NCBI GenBank assembly: GCA_964404345.1
Contig: CAYOJS010000001.1
Coordinates: 1,839-44,236 of the forward strand
Direction of reading: 5' to 3'
DNA: 42,398 nucleotides
Source of the DNA: an uncultured Methanosarcinales archaeon
GTDB taxonomy: Archaea; Nanobdellota; Nanobdellia; Woesearchaeales; SM23-78
Positions 3,651-13,542 of this stretch are shown here, piece by piece; the first letter of the stretch is position 1, and each line of letters begins with the position of its first letter. A model generated the notes under the pieces. The model was not told the origin of the DNA and searched no databases. It was given only the letters and a program-made list of their open reading frames with translations. Made by a program: the position numbers and the translations under genes.

Positions 3651-4331
3651 TTAGCCTAGATTAAACCGTTGGTGGTAAAGCCGGTAATAGGCCCCAATGG
3701 TTTGAAGCGCTTGTTTGGCTTTTTCAGGAGTAATCTGGGTGATCTTTCTTGTTTTGCGATCAATGAGATAATTCTGAATCTGCTCATCACTGAGGCTGGT
3801 TACAGGCACATTTTTCTGGGTCACAGGATTGCGCAAGCTGTACATATTGATTCGAACCCAGGCAATTTCTTCCGGGGTAACATAAAGACCTTCTTGATCT
3901 GTATAATCAGCACGATTCGCTAAAAAGATGCCTCCTGTTTTAGACTTGGTAAAAGAAGGGTAAAGGCTAGTATGACTTTTGATGCTAAGACCGGTTTGAG
4001 TCTCATCAGCAACCGTTCCCAGCCCATATTGCAGTACGTCCGGAGGCAATTGGATGTGGTTCCAATTTCGGCTTTGTTTGTCAAAGAGGATTTCCATAAG
4101 CCAGTCATCGTTGACCGATTCAACCGGCCAGGTTTTTCGCATACGCGCATCATAAATGGTTGGTTTGCTGGCACGTAGCCCACGGATAAAATCCATTCTA
4201 TAAGGCTCAAATGCATTCAGAAATCGGTCATAATCCGGTTTGTGTCGGACTTTATAGGTTTCTCCTTCTCCAATGACTGCAAGAGTCATAGGGATGAGTA
4301 AAATCGTTAAAACCAGCCAGGTGAGCTTCAT
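3651..4331 (-). CDS. secreted hypothetical protein
   Basis: N-terminal signal-like segment 'MKLTWLVLTILLIPMTLAVIG'. No recognised domain. Confidence 0.6.
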   Translation of the reverse strand: MKLTWLVLTILLIPMTLAVIGEGETYKVRHKPDYDRFLNAFEPYRMDFIRGLRASKPTIYDARMRKTWPVESVNDDWLMEILFDKQSRNWNHIQLPPDVLQYGLGTVADETQTGLSIKSHTSLYPSFTKSKTGGIFLANRADYTDQEGLYVTPEEIAWVRINMYSLRNPVTQKNVPVTSLSDEQIQNYLIDRKTRKITQITPEKAKQALQTIGAYYRLYHQRFNLG

Positions 4332-4391
4332 AGCACTACTTATGCCGTAAATAGTTAAAAAGCTTTCGATAAATAAGTCTTGCAGAAAAGC

Positions 4392-4399
4392 TTTATATA
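4392..4399 (+). promoter_or_regulatory. archaeal TATA box (TTTATATA) for argS
   Basis: Centred about 26 nt upstream of ATG 4422. This puts the real argS start at 4422 (MEIKD...), not the track start 4380. Confidence 0.6.
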
Positions 4400-4421
4400 C
4401 AGACTCGGGTTATGGGAGTAT

Positions 4422-6119
4422 ATGGAAATCAAGGATTGTCTGGCAACTTTTCTAGCAAAAGAACTCAAATTAGACAGGCAGAAAGTCCTTTCAATCCTCG
4501 AAACCCCTCCAGACCCCAAAATGGGAGACCTAGCGTTTCCGTGCTTCGAACTAGCCAAAATAAAAAAGAAAGCCCCTCCAGTGATTGCAATCGAGCTCGC
4601 TCAAACATTAAAGTTCCCTTCTGAGATAGAAAGAGTCGCCGCCACAGGTCCTTATCTGAATTTTTTCATCAATCGATCGTTTCTGGTAGAGCAAGTATTG
4701 GAAGAAGTTAAGAAAAAGAAAGAGGAGTACGGTCAATCGGCTCATTTCAAAGAAAAGGCTGTGGTGGAGTTTGCCGGTCCTAATACAAACAAACCCTTAC
4801 ATTTAGGGCACTTAAGAAATATATTTCTAGGCCAGGCTGTGTGCAGCATTCTAAGTGTTCAAGGCTTCAAAGTAACGCCTGTAAACATCGTAAATGATCG
4901 TGGGGCGCATATTTGTAAAAGTATGCTCGCCTATCAGAAATGGGGAAACAACGCTAAGCCTGATAAGAAAGGGGATCATTATGTGGGGGATTGGTATGTG
5001 AAGTACGCCAATGAAGAAAAGACCCACCCTGAAATGGAAGAAGAGATTCGTGAAATGTTAAGGAAGTGGGAAGAAAGCGACCCTGAAGTGAAGGCGCTCT
5101 GGAAGAAAATGAATGGTTGGGTCTTGCAGGGATTTGCAGAGACCTTCAAACGCATCGGTGTGAAATTCGATAAGGAATACTATGAAAGTGATTTTTACGA
5201 CAAAGGAAAAGACTTGGTCGAGCAAGGAGTAAAAAAAGGAGTTTTCATCAAAAAGCCGGATGGAGAAATCCTAGCAGAGCTCGAGCCTTACAAGCTCCCG
5301 AATAAGATTGTTCTCCGCTCAGATGGAACAACGATTTACATCACCCAAGACATGGCGTTAGCTAGAATTCGCTTCCAAGATTATAAGATGGATCGCATGA
5401 TTTACGTGGTGGCCAATGAACAAAACCTTCATTTTCAGCAGTTGTTTAAGATGCTAGAACTCTTAGAGTTTCCCTTTGCAAAGAACTGCTTCCATCTCAG
5501 TTATGGTATGGTAACGCTTCCGGAAGGGAAGATGAAATCTCGAGAAGGAACAGTAATTGATGCAGATGACATCTTGGATGAAATGGAGCGTTTGGCAAAG
5601 GAAGAGATTCAGGAGCGCCATGAACTGGATGAGAAAAAAGCAAAAGAGCGGGCTGTTCAGATTGGTCATGGGGCCTTGCGTTTTTTCATCTTAAAGTACG
5701 ATCATGTCAAGGACATCATTTTCAACCCGAAAGAAAGCCTCTCATTTGAGGGGGAAACAGGCCCGTATGTACAATATGCGCATGCAAGGATTTGCAGCAT
5801 TTTGCGAAAGCATGGAAGTGCAGTAGCATCAAAAATAGAATGGTCATTGCTAAAAGCACCAGAAGAGGCCGAGCTAGTGAAAGCATTAGGGAAATTCAAG
5901 GAAGTAACGCTTGCGGCGGCCGAGCAGTACAAACCCCACCTAGTGGCTCGCTACTTACTCGATCTAGCGCAGTTGTTCAATGAGTATTACCATAAGCATC
6001 AAGTGATAACCGCAGATGAAGCTCTTACCAAGGCACGCATTCACTTAATTGATTCAGTCAGACAAGTCTTAAAGAATGGCCTCAATCTTCTTTTAATCGA
6101 GGCTCCCGAGGAGATGTAA
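4422..6119 (+). CDS. argS: arginine--tRNA ligase
   Basis: Class I HIGH motif 'NKPLHLGHLRN', KMSK-like 'GKMKSREG', and a C-terminal anticodon-binding region typical of ArgRS. Confidence 0.93.
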   Translation: MEIKDCLATFLAKELKLDRQKVLSILETPPDPKMGDLAFPCFELAKIKKKAPPVIAIELAQTLKFPSEIERVAATGPYLNFFINRSFLVEQVLEEVKKKKEEYGQSAHFKEKAVVEFAGPNTNKPLHLGHLRNIFLGQAVCSILSVQGFKVTPVNIVNDRGAHICKSMLAYQKWGNNAKPDKKGDHYVGDWYVKYANEEKTHPEMEEEIREMLRKWEESDPEVKALWKKMNGWVLQGFAETFKRIGVKFDKEYYESDFYDKGKDLVEQGVKKGVFIKKPDGEILAELEPYKLPNKIVLRSDGTTIYITQDMALARIRFQDYKMDRMIYVVANEQNLHFQQLFKMLELLEFPFAKNCFHLSYGMVTLPEGKMKSREGTVIDADDILDEMERLAKEEIQERHELDEKKAKERAVQIGHGALRFFILKYDHVKDIIFNPKESLSFEGETGPYVQYAHARICSILRKHGSAVASKIEWSLLKAPEEAELVKALGKFKEVTLAAAEQYKPHLVARYLLDLAQLFNEYYHKHQVITADEALTKARIHLIDSVRQVLKNGLNLLLIEAPEEM

Positions 6120-6211
6120 AGCTTTTTGAATCCCGTTTCTCTTCTTACAAATGCATAGCTCTCACGCCCCTATGATGATCGTGAGTGGGGGTCGTTAAGC
6201 TGTGCTACAAT

Positions 6212-6240
6212 AGGGGCAGGCGTCAGCCTGCTCCTTTTTT
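6212..6240 (+). terminator. stem-loop plus T-run downstream of argS
   Basis: AGGGGCAGGC (6212-6221) / GCCTGCTCCT (6226-6235) form a 10-bp stem with one G-U and loop GTCA, running into TTTTTT (6235-6240). Confidence 0.5.
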
Positions 6241-6300
6241 CAATAACCTTAAAAAGCCTGTTTTTCTTCTATCCTGTATTGGGCCCGTAGCATAGCCTGG

Positions 6301-6344
6301 GTATGTCAAATTCGTAAGAATTTGATCAGATCTGCATAGGGCAG
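6301..6344 (+). other. non-canonical tRNA intron in the D-loop (after G18G19), 44 nt
   Basis: Central 4-bp helix GCCT (6295-98) / GGGC (6339-42). 3-nt bulges GGG (6299-6301) and AGA (6343-45). Inner helix TATG/CATA. Same position and same central helix as the tRNA-Leu D-loop intron. Confidence 0.7.
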
Positions 6345-6363
6345 ATAGTGTATCCGGCTTCGG

Positions 6364-6378
6364 TTAAAATCAGGAGAA
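6364..6378 (+). other. canonical 37/38 tRNA intron, 15 nt
   Basis: Central helix CTTC (6358-61) / GGAG (6373-76). Bulges GGT (6362-64) and AAA (6377-79). The inner helix is almost absent, so this is a relaxed BHB. Confidence 0.7.
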
Positions 6379-6420
6379 ACCGGATGAGGGGGGTTCAAAT
6401 CCCTCCGGGCTCGCCTTTTT

Positions 6421-6583
6421 TTCAGTGCAGTATCGAACGAAGTGAGATACTCAGAATTCGGCGGAGTTCTGGTACCAGAAATCCCTAGGATTTCTGTGTA
6501 CTGCGGTTCAGGGTTCTAGGGAAGTGCTCAGAAATCATGGATTTCTGGCACGCCAAGAGCTTTGTTCTTGAGCGAATTCCCTA
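6421..6583 (+). repeat. ORF-less hairpin array between tRNA-Arg and the orphan copy of its 3' end
   Basis: Five consecutive hairpins: AGTATC/GATACT (6429-6451), CAGAATTC-GGCG-GAGTTCTG (6452-6471), a 14-bp stem at 6471-6502 with loop CTA, a 13-bp stem at 6524-6551 with loop ATG, and CAAGA/TCTTG (6554-6570). The CAGAA...TTCTG core recurs. Confidence 0.55.
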
Positions 6584-6606
6584 GGTTCATATCCCTCCGG
6601 ACTCGC
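6584..6606 (+). repeat. orphan direct repeat of the tRNA-Arg 3' end
   Basis: GGTTCATATCCCTCCGGACTCGC versus GGTTCAAATCCCTCCGGGCTCGC at 6392-6414 (21/23 identical). Both copies are followed by a T-run. No matching 5' half or T-stem partner was found. Confidence 0.7.
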
Positions 6607-6688
6607 TTTTTTATTCCTTTCCAGTAAAACACCTATAGAAAATTATTCTCCAACACCACCTTTCCTTAAACAAAATCTTTAAAAAGAG

Positions 6689-7246
6689 TTGCATGTCTCA
6701 AACAAAGGGGGGTGTAACAATTTGTTTTCGTTTTCACAACAGCACAAGATTTCCGACGAGCTAATTGAGCTGCGTAGGAACATGCGTGCCGGTTTTCAAC
6801 TCGTCCGCGAGGAATTAGATAACCACTTGGACACGATCAATCAGAGTACGGAAGAAATCCAGAGCGCGTTCGAATTCTTGATGGAGTTGGATAAGAAAGT
6901 GGAAAAGCTGGGTGAGCGATTGGATCAGTTGGAGCCTTTGTTGAATCCCATTGTAAAGTCCGAACAGGTTGTATTGCCCCACCGTGAGCAAGAGGTATTT
7001 GTCCTATTATATGCAACACATGAACGTCTGCCTGTAAAAGAATTAGCAAGGAAGTTGGGTTTGACGGTAGAGATGGTAGATAATTATGTGTGCAGTATGA
7101 TCTCAAAGAAAATCCCGATTCTTCGAGAATTAGAGGGGGAAACCTGTTGGGTTTCATTGGACGGGCGATTCAAAGAATTGCAGGCAAAGCAAAGTGTGAT
7201 CCGAATCAATGAAGACGTGACCCAAAGCTTGTTAACTGAACTATAA
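6689..7246 (+). CDS. coiled-coil protein with C-terminal HTH
   Basis: The C-terminal part 'REQEVFVLLYATHERLPVKELARKLGLTVEMVDNYVCSMISK' looks like a LuxR/sigma-r4-type HTH. Start is uncertain: TTG 6689, TTG 6722 or ATG 6782. Confidence 0.55.
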   Translation: MHVSNKGGCNNLFSFSQQHKISDELIELRRNMRAGFQLVREELDNHLDTINQSTEEIQSAFEFLMELDKKVEKLGERLDQLEPLLNPIVKSEQVVLPHREQEVFVLLYATHERLPVKELARKLGLTVEMVDNYVCSMISKKIPILRELEGETCWVSLDGRFKELQAKQSVIRINEDVTQSLLTEL

Positions 7247-7259
7247 TCTATAGGAAGTT

Positions 7260-7267
7260 TTTTATAG
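7260..7267 (+). promoter_or_regulatory. TATA box (TTTTATAG) for gpmI
   Basis: Centred about 25 nt upstream of ATG 7289. Confidence 0.5.
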
Positions 7268-7288
7268 CCGAATTTCTGGTTTACACGG

Positions 7289-8809
7289 ATGCCTAAAAAA
7301 TCATTTGTTCTTGTAGTAATGGATGGGTTCGGATTGAGTAATAAGACAGCAGGAAATGCCATTCGTCTTGCAAAGAAGCCACATCTAAGCAACCTCTTCA
7401 GAAATAATCCTTTCACGCCATTGAAAGCTTCTGGAAATGCCGTGGGTCTTCCCGAGGGGGTTATGGGAAATTCAGAGGTAGGTCATTACACAATCGGAGC
7501 CGGGCGTGTCATCTGGCAGGACCTGGAGCGGATCAATCGTGAGATTCGTTCGAAGAGTTTTTTTGAAAATCAGGTGCTTCGGCAAGCGTGTAAGTATGCG
7601 AAGAAAAACAAGTCCACATTGCACCTGATGGGGCTCTTAAGTAACGGCGGCGTACACGCCCAAATAGAGCACGTGTTGGCGTTACTAAAATTAGCTAAAT
7701 ACAATGGAGTCAAGGAAGTCATCGTGCAGGGTTTTACAGATGGGAGGGACATGGCTCCTCGTTCCGCATTGAAATTGATTAGGCAGTTAGAGGCTGCAAT
7801 GAAGCATCTGAAAGTGGGAAAGTTGGGGGGCATCATCGGGCGGTATTATGCAATGGATCGGGACAATCGTTGGAATCGAGAACACAAGGCATACGACGCT
7901 TTAGTAAACGACAAAGGGTTTACATACCCTTCCGCTCAAGATGCGATTCAAGCAGCTTACAAGAGGGGGGAGAGTGACGAGTTCATTCAGCCCAGCCTTA
8001 TTCATGGTAAGGATAGCAACAAAAGACACCTAGTGAAGGAAAAAGACGCTATTATCTTCTTTAATTTCCGCAGTGATCGTGCGCGCGAACTGACTCGGGC
8101 TTTTACAACAGGCCAATTTAAGAAGTTTAAGAGAAATAGGCGGTTAAAGTTGTTTTTCGCCTGTTTTTGCGAGTATGATAAGCAACTGAAGCTTCCTGTT
8201 GCTTTCCCCCCAGTAATTCCTCAGAATTCATTAGGCGAACTTCTATCAAAAAAGGGTTGGAAGCAATTGCGTGTGGCAGAAACAGAAAAATACGCGCATG
8301 TAACTTATTTCTTCAATGGAGGATTAGAAAAGCCTTTCAAGGGAGAAGACCGCATTTTAATTTCCAGCCCGAAAGTAGCCACGTACGATAAGATCCCGCA
8401 AATGTCTGCTCTGAAAACAACCCAAACTGTTCTGAAGGCGTTAGCGCAGGAAAAGTACGATTTCATTCTGATCAACTTCGCAAATTGCGATATGGTAGGG
8501 CACACCGGGAAACTCAAAGAAACCGTCAAAGCCGTAGAAGTAGTCGATGCCTGTGTTGGACGCATCGTGAATGAAGTGTTAAAAAGAAAAGGAAAGGTGC
8601 TGATTACAGCCGATCATGGAAATGCTGAGCAGAAAAGGTTTAAGGGTCAACCCAGTACAGCGCACACGACCAATCCAGTGCCTTGCTGCCTGATTGGAGC
8701 TTCTTATAAAAAACTTAGAAAGGGCGGTCTAGGTGATGTAGCCCCCACCATTCTTAAAGCATTAGGAATAAAACCTCCTCGAGAAATGACAGGGAAGTCT
8801 TTATGTTAA
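7289..8809 (+). CDS. gpmI: 2,3-bisphosphoglycerate-independent phosphoglycerate mutase (GpmI type)
   Basis: 'VLVVMDGFGLS', 'GNSEVGHYTIGAGRV' and 'NFANCDMVGHTG ... ITADHGNAE' are iPGM metal and catalytic motifs. Confidence 0.92.
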   Translation: MPKKSFVLVVMDGFGLSNKTAGNAIRLAKKPHLSNLFRNNPFTPLKASGNAVGLPEGVMGNSEVGHYTIGAGRVIWQDLERINREIRSKSFFENQVLRQACKYAKKNKSTLHLMGLLSNGGVHAQIEHVLALLKLAKYNGVKEVIVQGFTDGRDMAPRSALKLIRQLEAAMKHLKVGKLGGIIGRYYAMDRDNRWNREHKAYDALVNDKGFTYPSAQDAIQAAYKRGESDEFIQPSLIHGKDSNKRHLVKEKDAIIFFNFRSDRARELTRAFTTGQFKKFKRNRRLKLFFACFCEYDKQLKLPVAFPPVIPQNSLGELLSKKGWKQLRVAETEKYAHVTYFFNGGLEKPFKGEDRILISSPKVATYDKIPQMSALKTTQTVLKALAQEKYDFILINFANCDMVGHTGKLKETVKAVEVVDACVGRIVNEVLKRKGKVLITADHGNAEQKRFKGQPSTAHTTNPVPCCLIGASYKKLRKGGLGDVAPTILKALGIKPPREMTGKSLC

Positions 8810-9363: not shown

Positions 9364-10026
9364 ATGCAAATAAGTAAGCTGAAGAAGCAGATTCCTTTTA
9401 AGGTGTTTGAGTATCTGGAAAAAAGAAAGTTTAAGGAGCTTCGGCCGTGCCAATACAAAGCCATACAAGCTGGTCTTTTTAAGGATAATAACCTATTGGT
9501 TTGCACTCCAACAGCGTCCGGTAAAACCTTAGTGGCTGAGTTAGCGGCCTTAAACGCTTTGTACCATGATCTGGGCAAGGTGATCTATGTGGTACCTTTG
9601 CGTGCTCTGGCACAAGAGAAGGTAAGGGATTTCAAGCGGGGTTACCCTGATTTAAAGATCGTGCTCACCTCGGGCGATCGAGATTCAGACGATTCGTATT
9701 TAGAACGGTTTGATTGGATCGTAACCACTTCGGAAAAATTAGATTCCTTGCTTCGGCATCGAGCTGCTTGGCTGCAGAGTATAAAAGTGGTGGTAGTAGA
9801 CGAAGTCCATTTGCTGAACGATGCCTCGCGAGGCCCTACATTAGAGGTTTTAATCACTTTGTTACGGCAATTGCTTCCGAAGTTGCAAATAGTGGCTTTA
9901 AGCGCTACCATCGGAAATCCAGATGAGTTAGCTAGCTGGCTTGGAGCAAACCTGGTGATGGATGAGTGGCGGCCCGTACGCCTAGATAAGGGTATTTATT
10001 CAGCAGGGAAAGTGGAGTTTTGGTGA
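9364..10026 (+). CDS. Ski2/Hel308-type helicase, first RecA domain only (truncated)
   Basis: Motif I 'TPTASGKT', motif II 'DEVH', motif III 'SAT', then 'WRPVRLDKG' and a stop. No helicase C-terminal, winged-helix or ratchet domain follows, because the next gene is on the opposite strand. Confidence 0.75.
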   Translation: MQISKLKKQIPFKVFEYLEKRKFKELRPCQYKAIQAGLFKDNNLLVCTPTASGKTLVAELAALNALYHDLGKVIYVVPLRALAQEKVRDFKRGYPDLKIVLTSGDRDSDDSYLERFDWIVTTSEKLDSLLRHRAAWLQSIKVVVVDEVHLLNDASRGPTLEVLITLLRQLLPKLQIVALSATIGNPDELASWLGANLVMDEWRPVRLDKGIYSAGKVEFW

Positions 10027-10674: not shown

Positions 10675-12207
10675 TTGCCAATGAACGAGTTGGAGCATAA
10701 GATTTTTCGTAAGTTTAAGAGTGAGCCTTCAAGAGAGCTCTCTACTTCAGCAGTGGTGAGAGAGGTTATACCCAATGAATATCGCTGGGTGTGGGAAACC
10801 TTGTCAGGTATTCGTGAAAAGGCACAGTTAGTGGTAGCAAAGCGGAAAAAGGGGCAATTACACCGAAAAGTATTGTATTATCTGAATAAATTAGCCCAGA
10901 AAGAAGCCATCCTGCAAACAAGGGTAGTGGGAAAGGGAGAGAAGTATTTTATTTTGAACATTCAGGGTTCTAAGAGCAGTCCTGTTTTTGAGTCGCGTGC
11001 AGTTCAGCTGATAACCCCGATTGAAGGGTATGAAAAAGAGGGTTTGATTCAGAAGGGAGAGTCTTGGTCAAATCGCCTGGGAGCCATTTGGGTGGATGCT
11101 TCTGCCTTTTCAGGCATTTTCAAGCTGCAAGCTACCATTTCCGAGTGCTTCTCTGAAGTGAGCGATGCCATCGGCGTGTACCACTTTGAAGAATTGATCG
11201 ATCATGGGGATCTAGAAGCATTAGAAGAAGGATTACGGCACTTGGACCTAGAAGCAAAAGACTTCAACCGGAGGGTCAGTTTATTCGTAACATGGAAGCC
11301 TGACCTAAAGGAAGAGCGTTTAAGACAGTTTACAGAGCGTTGGGTGCGCCTGCAGCCTGAACGGACAACAATAATATGGGGATTAACCTCAAATGGGTTG
11401 GAAATGCACTCAGACTGTTTCAAGGAAATCGTGAGCCTATTAGGAGGCCATCAGCTTCCCATCTACATCGATAATCGCAAAAGTCTGGCTCCAGCGCTGA
11501 TAGGGCAAAAGGGAGTGTATAGGATGAGCCCAGAAGAGTGGAGGCGATTTGAGAAGGGAGGTCTTAAGCTGGGGGTGAGTGGGATTTGCACGTTATCAGT
11601 GGATGTGAATCGATTTTTTGATGGGAAGCGTTCATTTCAAGAGTTTAGGGGGATGGTTCGAAAAGCAGCAAAGTCTTTGTTCTTGGCAAATTGGACGTTG
11701 CAGGAGCAAGGGATGAATCATTTTACCATTCTGAACAAGGTAAATGAGGGGGCTCGCTTGTTTTATCACTTAGGTTCTAATCAGTTGAGATTTTTAAATT
11801 TCCCTGCCAAAGGAATTGAGGCCGATCATTTTTTGAGTCTTTTGGAGAGTTGTCAATGTGAAGTGACTCGTTTTGTAAAGGTGCAGGAAACCATTTTGAA
11901 GTCTTGCGGGATGCCAGTGGATTTCAACATTTTATTCGGAGCAGGGAAAGGCACATCAGAGGTCCTCAATGCAGCTAAATGTGTTGATTTTTTAAAACCT
12001 GAGTTTCAGGAGTTGTTTCGAAGGAAAGAGCGGCTAGCTAGAATTATCGGAGGGAGGGATGTTCTTGAGTGGGTAACAGTAACAGATGATCGAAAGGAGT
12101 GGGTGCATCAAGTCCAATACATATTGGACCATGTGAATGTCCCGCTCTTTTGCTTGTGTTTTGGTGAAGGGAAGGGGGTAATCAAGTTGACAAGTTTTTT
12201 GGGGTAA
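10675..12207 (+). CDS. hypothetical protein, 510 aa, with a possible N-terminal winged helix
   Basis: Long ORF; ATG at 10681 follows TTG 10675. TTTATATA at 10618-10625. Ends 3 nt before the thymidylate synthase ORF. Confidence 0.6.
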   Translation: MPMNELEHKIFRKFKSEPSRELSTSAVVREVIPNEYRWVWETLSGIREKAQLVVAKRKKGQLHRKVLYYLNKLAQKEAILQTRVVGKGEKYFILNIQGSKSSPVFESRAVQLITPIEGYEKEGLIQKGESWSNRLGAIWVDASAFSGIFKLQATISECFSEVSDAIGVYHFEELIDHGDLEALEEGLRHLDLEAKDFNRRVSLFVTWKPDLKEERLRQFTERWVRLQPERTTIIWGLTSNGLEMHSDCFKEIVSLLGGHQLPIYIDNRKSLAPALIGQKGVYRMSPEEWRRFEKGGLKLGVSGICTLSVDVNRFFDGKRSFQEFRGMVRKAAKSLFLANWTLQEQGMNHFTILNKVNEGARLFYHLGSNQLRFLNFPAKGIEADHFLSLLESCQCEVTRFVKVQETILKSCGMPVDFNILFGAGKGTSEVLNAAKCVDFLKPEFQELFRRKERLARIIGGRDVLEWVTVTDDRKEWVHQVQYILDHVNVPLFCLCFGEGKGVIKLTSFLG

Positions 12208-12210
12208 AAT

Positions 12211-12867
12211 ATGGAGATTCATGAAGAGGTAGCAATCAAAGCTTGGGAGACAAGTCTGAGTAAAGTATGGAAGGAGGGACGAGAATTCAAAGATCAAGAA
12301 GGCCGGGTCTGCCGAGAAGTACTAAACATGGTGGTTTGTGTGGAGCACCCCGAAAAGAATATCGGAGAGCCTGCTCAATGGTTGGCTCGACAGGAGGAAT
12401 GGGTATATCCTTCCTTGGATCAGATCGCCCAGGTCATCTTAAGCGATGTCGGAAGCCTATTTTTTCATTACGCGTATGGTGAGCGTGTATTTAAATTTCA
12501 GGGTAAGAAGAATCAGTTGGAAGAGTTTATTTTGCCTTTGCTATCCAAGAGCTCAGAATCCCGCAGGGCTTTGATTTCATTGTATGATCCTGTAGTTGAT
12601 TCAGATGCTTAAAAGGAGGATGTGGCTTGTTTAGGATCCATTCCCTTCCGAGCGATCGAAAAAAGATTACACGTAACCGGTTATATTCGAAGCAATGACT
12701 TATTCATTGGCTGGCCGGCAAACGCATATCAGTTGTTCGTTTTACAACGTTGGGTTGCTGCCAAGCTCGGTTTGGAAGTGGGCTCTTTAACCACGATCTC
12801 AGGCTCTGCCCATGTCTTTGTAGAGTACACAGAAGAATTAAAGCGATTGCTTAATGATGCGATTTAA
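12211..12867 (+). pseudogene. thyA: archaeal-type thymidylate synthase interrupted by an in-frame TAA at 12610-12612
   Basis: ORFs 12211..12612 and 12622..12867 share one frame. Joined, they read '...SRRALISLYDPVVDSDA*KEDVACLGS...YIRSNDLFIGWPANAYQ...GSAHVF', the ThyA RR / catalytic Cys / RSxD / aN / H series. Confidence 0.8.
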
Positions 12868-13542
12868 TTATTTCTCGGTATGCCTGCCCACATAAAGTCA
12901 TCGTGGTGATCGCAACGATAAAAGATAGATAACCCGAGAATAAATTATAAGCAATCCCGATCAATATATTCTCACTCTGAATCGTGGCAAGAAGCGCTTG
13001 GAGGAGGATGCTAACCAAAGCAGTATAACCCAGTGATACAATCCAGGCTTTGAAGTAAGGGGGGTAAAGGCTCGTGAGAAGATGACTGAATACTGAAGGC
13101 CATCTTTGAATCGGTACGTGGCTATGTAATGAATCGTAGCAAGGAGTGCAAAATACCAAGTTGCGAGGAAAAGCACAATCAAGAGCACAAGATAAGCACC
13201 GTTTTGCTGGGCTAGGTGTTCAACAAGAGCGGTAGGGTCTGTCTCGGTAAGAAAGGTTTGGGCGCTTTTGAAGAGGAAAATAAGCAGGGCAAAAAAGAGC
13301 GGAATGGAGTAAACCCCCCATAAGAGTGTTAAAAAAAAGCCTCGTTTAAAGAGCATCCAAAAATCCCGCCAGGGGGGGAGATGGTCTTTCTTTGCGATCG
13401 CCAGGCGGGTAACCTCGGCAGCATAGCCCGTTACAAAGAGTCCTGTAAGAATATTGAAGAGGGGTATACCGCTAAGAACCGCACCTATCGTTAGTTTTTT
13501 AAGGTCTTGGAAGGGGCGTTGAAAAGCATCCAGATAATTCAT
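12851..13542 (-). pseudogene. DUF4013-like membrane protein, frameshifted
   Basis: The N-terminal part lies in the frame of 12961..13542 ('PPWRDFWMLFKRGFF'). Hydrophobic helices continue in the frame of 12851..13159 ('YFKAWIVSLGYTALVSILLQ'). A G6 run sits at 13059-13064 in the overlap. Confidence 0.6.

Follow-up and report, generated by a model that had tools for sequence, protein, structure and literature searches.

An in-frame stop codon in an archaeal thymidylate-synthase-like gene is private to one draft assembly and most likely a local sequence error

The closest described counterparts of the gene studied here are the methanogen-type archaeal thymidylate synthases (TIGR03283, PF00303), with which it shares a length of about 215 aa, a full-length profile match, and the ThyA fold. 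Its intact allele further carries the Arg pair, the R-S-x-D motif, and the Asn, His, and P-C residues of that group, whereas the gene differs from the group in its sub-cutoff family score and in having His-x-Phe in place of His-x-Tyr. In the draft genome considered here, the reading frame of the gene is broken by a stop codon, and two further comparisons come into play. DPANN archaea are known for split protein genes, such as those of Nanoarchaeum equitans. The present locus resembles these in coming from a DPANN-type archaeon and in consisting of two adjacent ORFs that jointly cover one enzyme; unlike them, it has two parts that share a frame with just one stop between them, and the split is absent from the population's other assemblies and from 22 orthologues. 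The second comparison is with consensus errors of draft metagenome-assembled genomes (MAGs). The locus is like these in its short, private, and nonconservative patch of changes, in a homopolymer frameshift nearby, in the 106 N-runs of the genome, and in that independent assemblies agree mutually and disagree with this one. It is unlike typical errors of this kind in that the sequence is the more accurate one elsewhere in the overlap, and the case for an error comes here from the comparison of assemblies.

If the split were accepted as it stands, it would suggest either that this small-genome archaeon has lost de novo thymidylate synthesis or that the enzyme is made in two pieces or by reading through the stop. 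We analyzed the gene within a stretch of 42,398 nucleotides of contig CAYOJS010000001.1 (assembly GCA_964404345.1), hereafter the window, and compared it with other assemblies of the same population, with related genomes, and with protein families and solved structures.

Results

Structure of the interrupted gene

The ThyA-fold (methanogen-type thymidylate-synthase-like) gene occupies positions 12211–12867 of the forward strand, running from an ATG at 12211 to a terminal TAA at 12865–12867, with 218 sense codons and one internal TAA. The internal stop, the only one in the frame, falls at codon 134 (12610–12612, forward strand), six codons ahead of the TGT codon (12628–12630, forward strand) of a catalytic-type cysteine, Cys140, which was assigned by alignment to solved ThyA-fold enzymes and from family alignments. 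The N-terminal piece is 133 aa long, and the C-terminal piece, counted from a GTG at 12622, is 81 aa. Directly after the stop, the forward strand reads AAGGAGG (12613–12619), resembling a Shine–Dalgarno (SD) sequence, then AT and the in-frame GTG (12613–12624 in all), which together code for Lys-Glu-Asp-Val. The preliminary description of the window had read the locus as a one-frame ThyA split by a lone TAA, and full-length matches to PF00303 and TIGR03283 over the 218 codons confirm this; the SD-like motif and the GTG at a spacing of 2 nt, which it had also pointed out, are present in the sequence.

When read through, the product scores 57.6 bits against PF00303 (gathering cutoff 24.3); taken separately, the C-terminal piece scores 43.7 bits and the N-terminal piece gives no match. 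The best-matching family is TIGR03283, the methanogen-type ThyA, which the read-through product matches end to end with 119.7 bits, more than either piece alone. This is below the equivalog cutoff of 174.55, which even the intact allele described below (127.4 bits) does not reach; the scores of two orthologues against the same profile are 128.4 (P0001) and 135.9 bits (P0009).

An intact allele in the same population

The 90%-identity protein cluster that holds both pieces of the window gene also includes a 218-aa protein (P0023), found on four contigs (L017–L020) from four assembly records of groundwater metagenomes. In DNA comparison, the 657-nt gene on these contigs agrees with that of the window at every base but four, given here on the forward strand. 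At 12611 the window has A and the four contigs C, turning TCA (Ser134) into the TAA stop; at 12625 the window has G for C (Pro139 to Ala), at 12635 G for T (Val142 to Gly), and at 12644 C for A (His145 to Pro). All four private differences fall within a patch of 34 nt (12611–12644, forward strand); every one is a transversion and nonsynonymous, with no synonymous change among them. The four states of the window are absent from all other alleles and orthologues compared, and the residues of the other assemblies are those of close orthologues: Ser, Pro, Val, and His or Gln.

The TAA is private to this assembly and part of a four-base patch, and the gene of the population is intact. The codon reads TCA (Ser) in four independent assemblies of a population that is otherwise identical base for base, and the stop is not characteristic of the organism. 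The 133-aa and 81-aa truncated products are recorded solely from the window's own contig, and pattern scans of metagenome and genome contigs that allowed any base at the patch sites found no copy of the stop allele in other assemblies.

A wider comparison drew on eight independent contigs, which together span 10,027 nt of the window and give 17,184 nt of compared sequence. Exact look-ups of more window proteins, made to widen the overlap, mostly returned none; one gave 1.7 kb and others about 2.5 kb. Outside the patch, no substitution is present in more than one of the eight contigs over the 10,027 nt, and there are two singletons, at 9744 and 9967. The probability of four differences clustering within 34 nt is approximately 1.6e-7 over the 10,027 nt and 4e-4 within the gene alone. 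As no other multiply supported substitution is found over this length, the population is clonal across these assemblies and the patch an outlier in it.

With the four bases restored, the product gains approximately 8 bits against either profile, rising from 119.7 to 127.4 bits for TIGR03283 and from 57.6 to 65.5 bits for PF00303. AlphaFold2 (AF2) models the intact allele with a pLDDT of 91.4 and a pTM of 0.90, and the top Foldseek matches of the model are thymidylate synthases and the CMP hydroxymethylase MilA (E down to 7e-18, probability 1.00, TMq up to 0.83, the last for MilA). The intact allele has P139-C140, R118/R119, R160-S161-x-D163, N171, and H201, the putative nucleophile and dUMP-binding set. 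Judged by its PF00303 score, predicted fold, and residues, the intact allele of the window gene is expected to belong to the ThyA superfamily. In the text of the window, the P-C motif at Cys140 reads A-C with Pro139 replaced by Ala, and Cys140 and all later residues of the set lie 3' of the stop. In the model, the stop falls in the loop 131–140, and the Gly and Pro replacements fall inside a core strand (141–149) that starts near Cys140. This cysteine aligns with the catalytic Cys strand of the solved enzymes, and the Pro before it, lost in the window, is nearly invariant.

Orthologues, selection, and gene context

We found no internal stop in any of the 22 full-length orthologues identified among 40 related genomes, and the window copy alone has one. 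The possibility that orthologues are normally encoded as two ORFs, which the preliminary description had named as a check, was examined on this set and fails, since all 22 are uninterrupted. Database homologues (n = 19, from MAGs of Nanoarchaeota and Woesearchaeota) are single ORFs of 193–221 aa, mostly 214–221 aa, the closest of them showing 80, 75, and 69% identity to the window ThyA. A stop at the position of codon 134 is found in none of the database homologues, the 22 orthologues, or the other members of the genus. In the stop column, the two genus-mates have TCA (Ser, in G002) and TTA (Leu, in G001), so that TAA is one base away from the codon of either relative, and there are no indels among the genus members.

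Between genus members, pN is 0.12–0.13 against a saturated pS of approximately 0.8, in both halves of the gene. With G001 as the outgroup, 12 amino acid changes are private to the window lineage and 12 to G002, showing no acceleration. The low pN and the equal numbers of replacements indicate that thyA has been under purifying selection for essentially all its history. The signs of a decaying pseudogene are absent: we found no relaxed selection, no acceleration, and no indels, and the lesions amount to the four bases of one patch.

The genes around thyA keep their order throughout the genus, namely an AsnC-like regulator, a protein of 510–520 aa, thyA itself, a DUF4013 gene, and a large surface protein. 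The second of these is in the window a 510-aa ORF without Pfam match (10675–12207, forward strand), located directly upstream of thyA and in the same frame, with one TAA and 3 nt between the two. This ORF is kept in the genus, where it adjoins or overlaps thyA (512–520 aa in contigs L003–L005). Farther upstream, a helicase-like ORF of the DEAD/ResIII type (9364–10026, forward strand) is 220 aa long and has the same length in the G002-type contigs L003–L005; this short form is a conserved one in the genus, not a lesion.

Origin of the stop codon

The reading that we consider quite probable, on comparison of the assembled sequences, is that a local error in the assembly or consensus of this gapped draft MAG produced the stop: it is one of four private changes within 34 nt, and four assemblies have the gene intact. 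The "sequencing or population-variant artefact" listed among the options of the preliminary description is now the best supported of them, with TCA in all four independent assemblies and a single ORF in each of the 22 orthologues. The organism's thyA-like gene would then be an ordinary, uninterrupted ORF of 218 codons, with the TAA arising in the consensus of this draft. Four wrong bases in 12611–12644 would have turned TCA into TAA and, on the catalytic strand, replaced Pro139, Val142, and His145 by Ala, Gly, and Pro. Such bases may have entered where coverage was poor and the consensus depended on one or a few reads that were damaged or of low quality, or when a gap was closed.

The surroundings of the patch are consistent with this. 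The DUF4013 gene (12851–13542, reverse strand) is present as two overlapping ORFs related by a -1 frameshift, as seen in a tblastn alignment against the 232-aa orthologue of G002 that changes frame between 13063 and 13057. At the break lies a homopolymer of six Gs (13059–13064), 415 nt from the thyA patch, where a seventh G would restore AFTPPYFKAW, as in the orthologue; an intact DUF4013 allele of the same population was not found on record. Contigs of two other assemblies (L017/L022 and L020) terminate at 13057, just short of the G-run. Since two independent contigs end there, the region is a trouble spot for assemblers, and the putative error stretch in thyA lies next to it. The thyA patch and the DUF4013 frameshift thus make two lesions of the consensus-error kind within 450 nt. 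Overall, the genome assembly is a draft MAG with gaps, amounting to 1.38 Mb in 164 contigs with 106 N-runs and 89% completeness.

Some observations speak against a local error. As De Bruijn assembly seldom creates bases that no read contains, the four bases were probably present in at least one read or molecule, and such a read or molecule could reflect a real minor allele. The other assemblies may also derive from different samples of the same aquifer. Finally, the window looks better than L017/L022 at three other sites where the two disagree (9706–9738, 10434, and 11128–11135) and appears to be correct in each, which indicates that its assembly is not generally poor. In the L017/L022 contig (ENA ERZ28564339 scaffold_11407), a public scaffold from the same population, approximately 30 nt are missing, an N-run is present, and the 510-aa gene is put out of frame by the loss of 8 nt.

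Less well supported, and in our judgment unlikely, is that the patch exists in nature as a private allele. In this case, one clustered mutational event, such as error-prone patch synthesis, would have put a stop and three damaging replacements into thyA in one strain of a clonal groundwater DPANN population and produced a very recent pseudogene, possibly tolerated through a ThyX-domain protein. The four bases do stand in the contig text, and an assembler normally calls bases only where reads support them; the absence of further decay would fit a very recent event, and the genome's 591-aa Thy1/ThyX-domain protein, which is lacking in the two genus-mates, could relax selection on thyA. This compensation is putative, however, as the ThyX-like protein matches neither the NCBIfam ThyX family nor solved ThyX enzymes by sequence. 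Four substitutions in 34 nt with no others in 10 kb would need a rare multihit event, and the allele has been seen in no other assembly. Spontaneous mutation spectra are unlike an all-transversion set, and here four of the four changes are transversions.

For a templated event, neither an ectopic donor, an improved hairpin, nor a template repeat was detected. Among the specific candidates, quasi-palindrome correction was rejected on the finding that both versions of the sequence fold no better than shuffles (z of 0.29–0.48), and an ectopic donor on the finding that matches to the region elsewhere in the genome are at chance level and at most 15 nt long. A diversity-generating retroelement (DGR) target is contradicted by the lack of a template repeat (chance 11- to 15-mers only) and by the intact allele's bases at the changed sites (C, C, T, and A), a set without adenine specificity. 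The consensus states are also those of G001 and G002, so import from a related species does not fit.

Very improbable is a functional arrangement, in which either the enzyme is made in two pieces, with reinitiation at the GTG at 12622 aided by the AAGGAGG, or the TAA is read through in a programmed manner. The position of these signals directly after the stop would suit reinitiation, the variable surface loop 131–140 of the model could in principle tolerate a nick, and both pieces are in the NCBI gene calls. Yet the intact allele has the same AAGGAGG and GTG, serving there as Lys-Glu-Asp-Val codons, so neither arose in response to the stop. Their 2-nt spacing compares with a genome mode of 6–7 nt, GGAGG precedes just 33 of 836 crude starts, and the full-length orthologues of the relatives are single ORFs in 22 cases out of 22. 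The replacements Pro139Ala, Val142Gly, and His145Pro in the catalytic strand are, moreover, unexpected in a maintained enzyme. Both the two-piece and the readthrough options of the preliminary description go unsupported, given a signal that is already there in the intact allele, a spacing off the mode, and no split in any relative; the functional two-piece reading was already largely refuted by the intact allele of the population. Readthrough also has against it that TAA is the commonest genuine stop, and a changed genetic code, judged unlikely from the outset, is excluded by the same count, TAA terminating 404 of the 807 ORFs of at least 200 aa in the genome.

With the local error as the preferred explanation, the locus itself is most likely ordinary and its interruption an artefact. 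The case calls for caution, as short private patches of error can skew metabolic reconstructions and pseudogene counts based on draft MAGs; such patches can be recognized without reads when independent assemblies of the same population are available.

Other thymidylate genes in the genome

The preliminary description had proposed searching the rest of the genome for a second thyA or a thyX and had noted that loss of a sole thymidylate synthase would imply dependence on a host or on salvage. PF00303 matches no gene other than that of the window in the 1.38-Mb, 89%-complete genome, and the search for a second thyA thus came back empty. The search for thyX was positive in part: contig 36 encodes a distant ThyX-domain protein of 591 aa, which shows no sequence match to the NCBIfam family or to solved structures. 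The Thy1/ThyX domain (PF02511) scores 33.8 bits against a Pfam cutoff of 24.8, and the C-terminal part of the protein has the motif RHRRGS. The protein belongs to an apparent operon on the reverse strand (contig 36, positions 3663–7346) together with HAD-like, Tmk-like (PF02223, 56 bits), and ParB-CE (PF24392) genes, and the GC content of the contig, 0.437, is close to the genome mean of 0.441. Across the 40 related genomes, relatives of the ThyX-domain protein were full length in two (G006 and G021) and truncated by the contig end in a third (G025), and neither genus-mate has one.

Thymidylate kinase is present in the genome. Thymidine kinase (PF00265), DHFR (PF00186), and SHMT (PF00464) were not found in the genome-wide search, at 89% completeness, and the ThyA-like gene is kept under purifying selection though no DHFR or SHMT was found. 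Because the gene of the population is intact, no conclusion of thymidylate loss or of a split enzyme is to be drawn from the stop. Nor does dependence on a host or on salvage follow, the population's gene being intact and the genome having the distant ThyX-domain protein as well.

Relatives lacking the nucleophilic cysteine

When the whole library was searched with the intact allele, 5,775 matches were obtained at E ≤ 1e-3, and for the analysis of the cysteine column we aligned the best 150 representatives of these, together with close homologues, to the family profile. Among the resulting 173 sequences, the column of the nucleophilic cysteine has Cys in 85, Ser in 40, Gly in 37, and Ala in 6, and the conserved Pro that anchors the column is present in 159. 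The family members considered include proteins P0006–P0090 and loci L010–L016. In the subfamily nearest to the window gene (approximately 215 aa, with His-x-Phe), the non-Cys forms dominate and the dUMP-binding residues are all conserved; the more distant canonical members, including fusions of 450–500 aa, almost all have P-C … H-x-Y.

The residue pattern suggests that many DPANN proteins called "thymidylate synthase" cannot use the classical covalent mechanism, and many of those so annotated may not be classical thymidylate synthase enzymes. A literature search on MJ0757 and on thymidylate synthase of DPANN archaea or Woesearchaeota found nothing pertinent. This large DPANN subfamily of ThyA-fold proteins, in which the nucleophilic cysteine is often absent, calls the annotation as thymidylate synthase into question and may outweigh the stop codon in interest. 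The window's own genus retains the cysteine.
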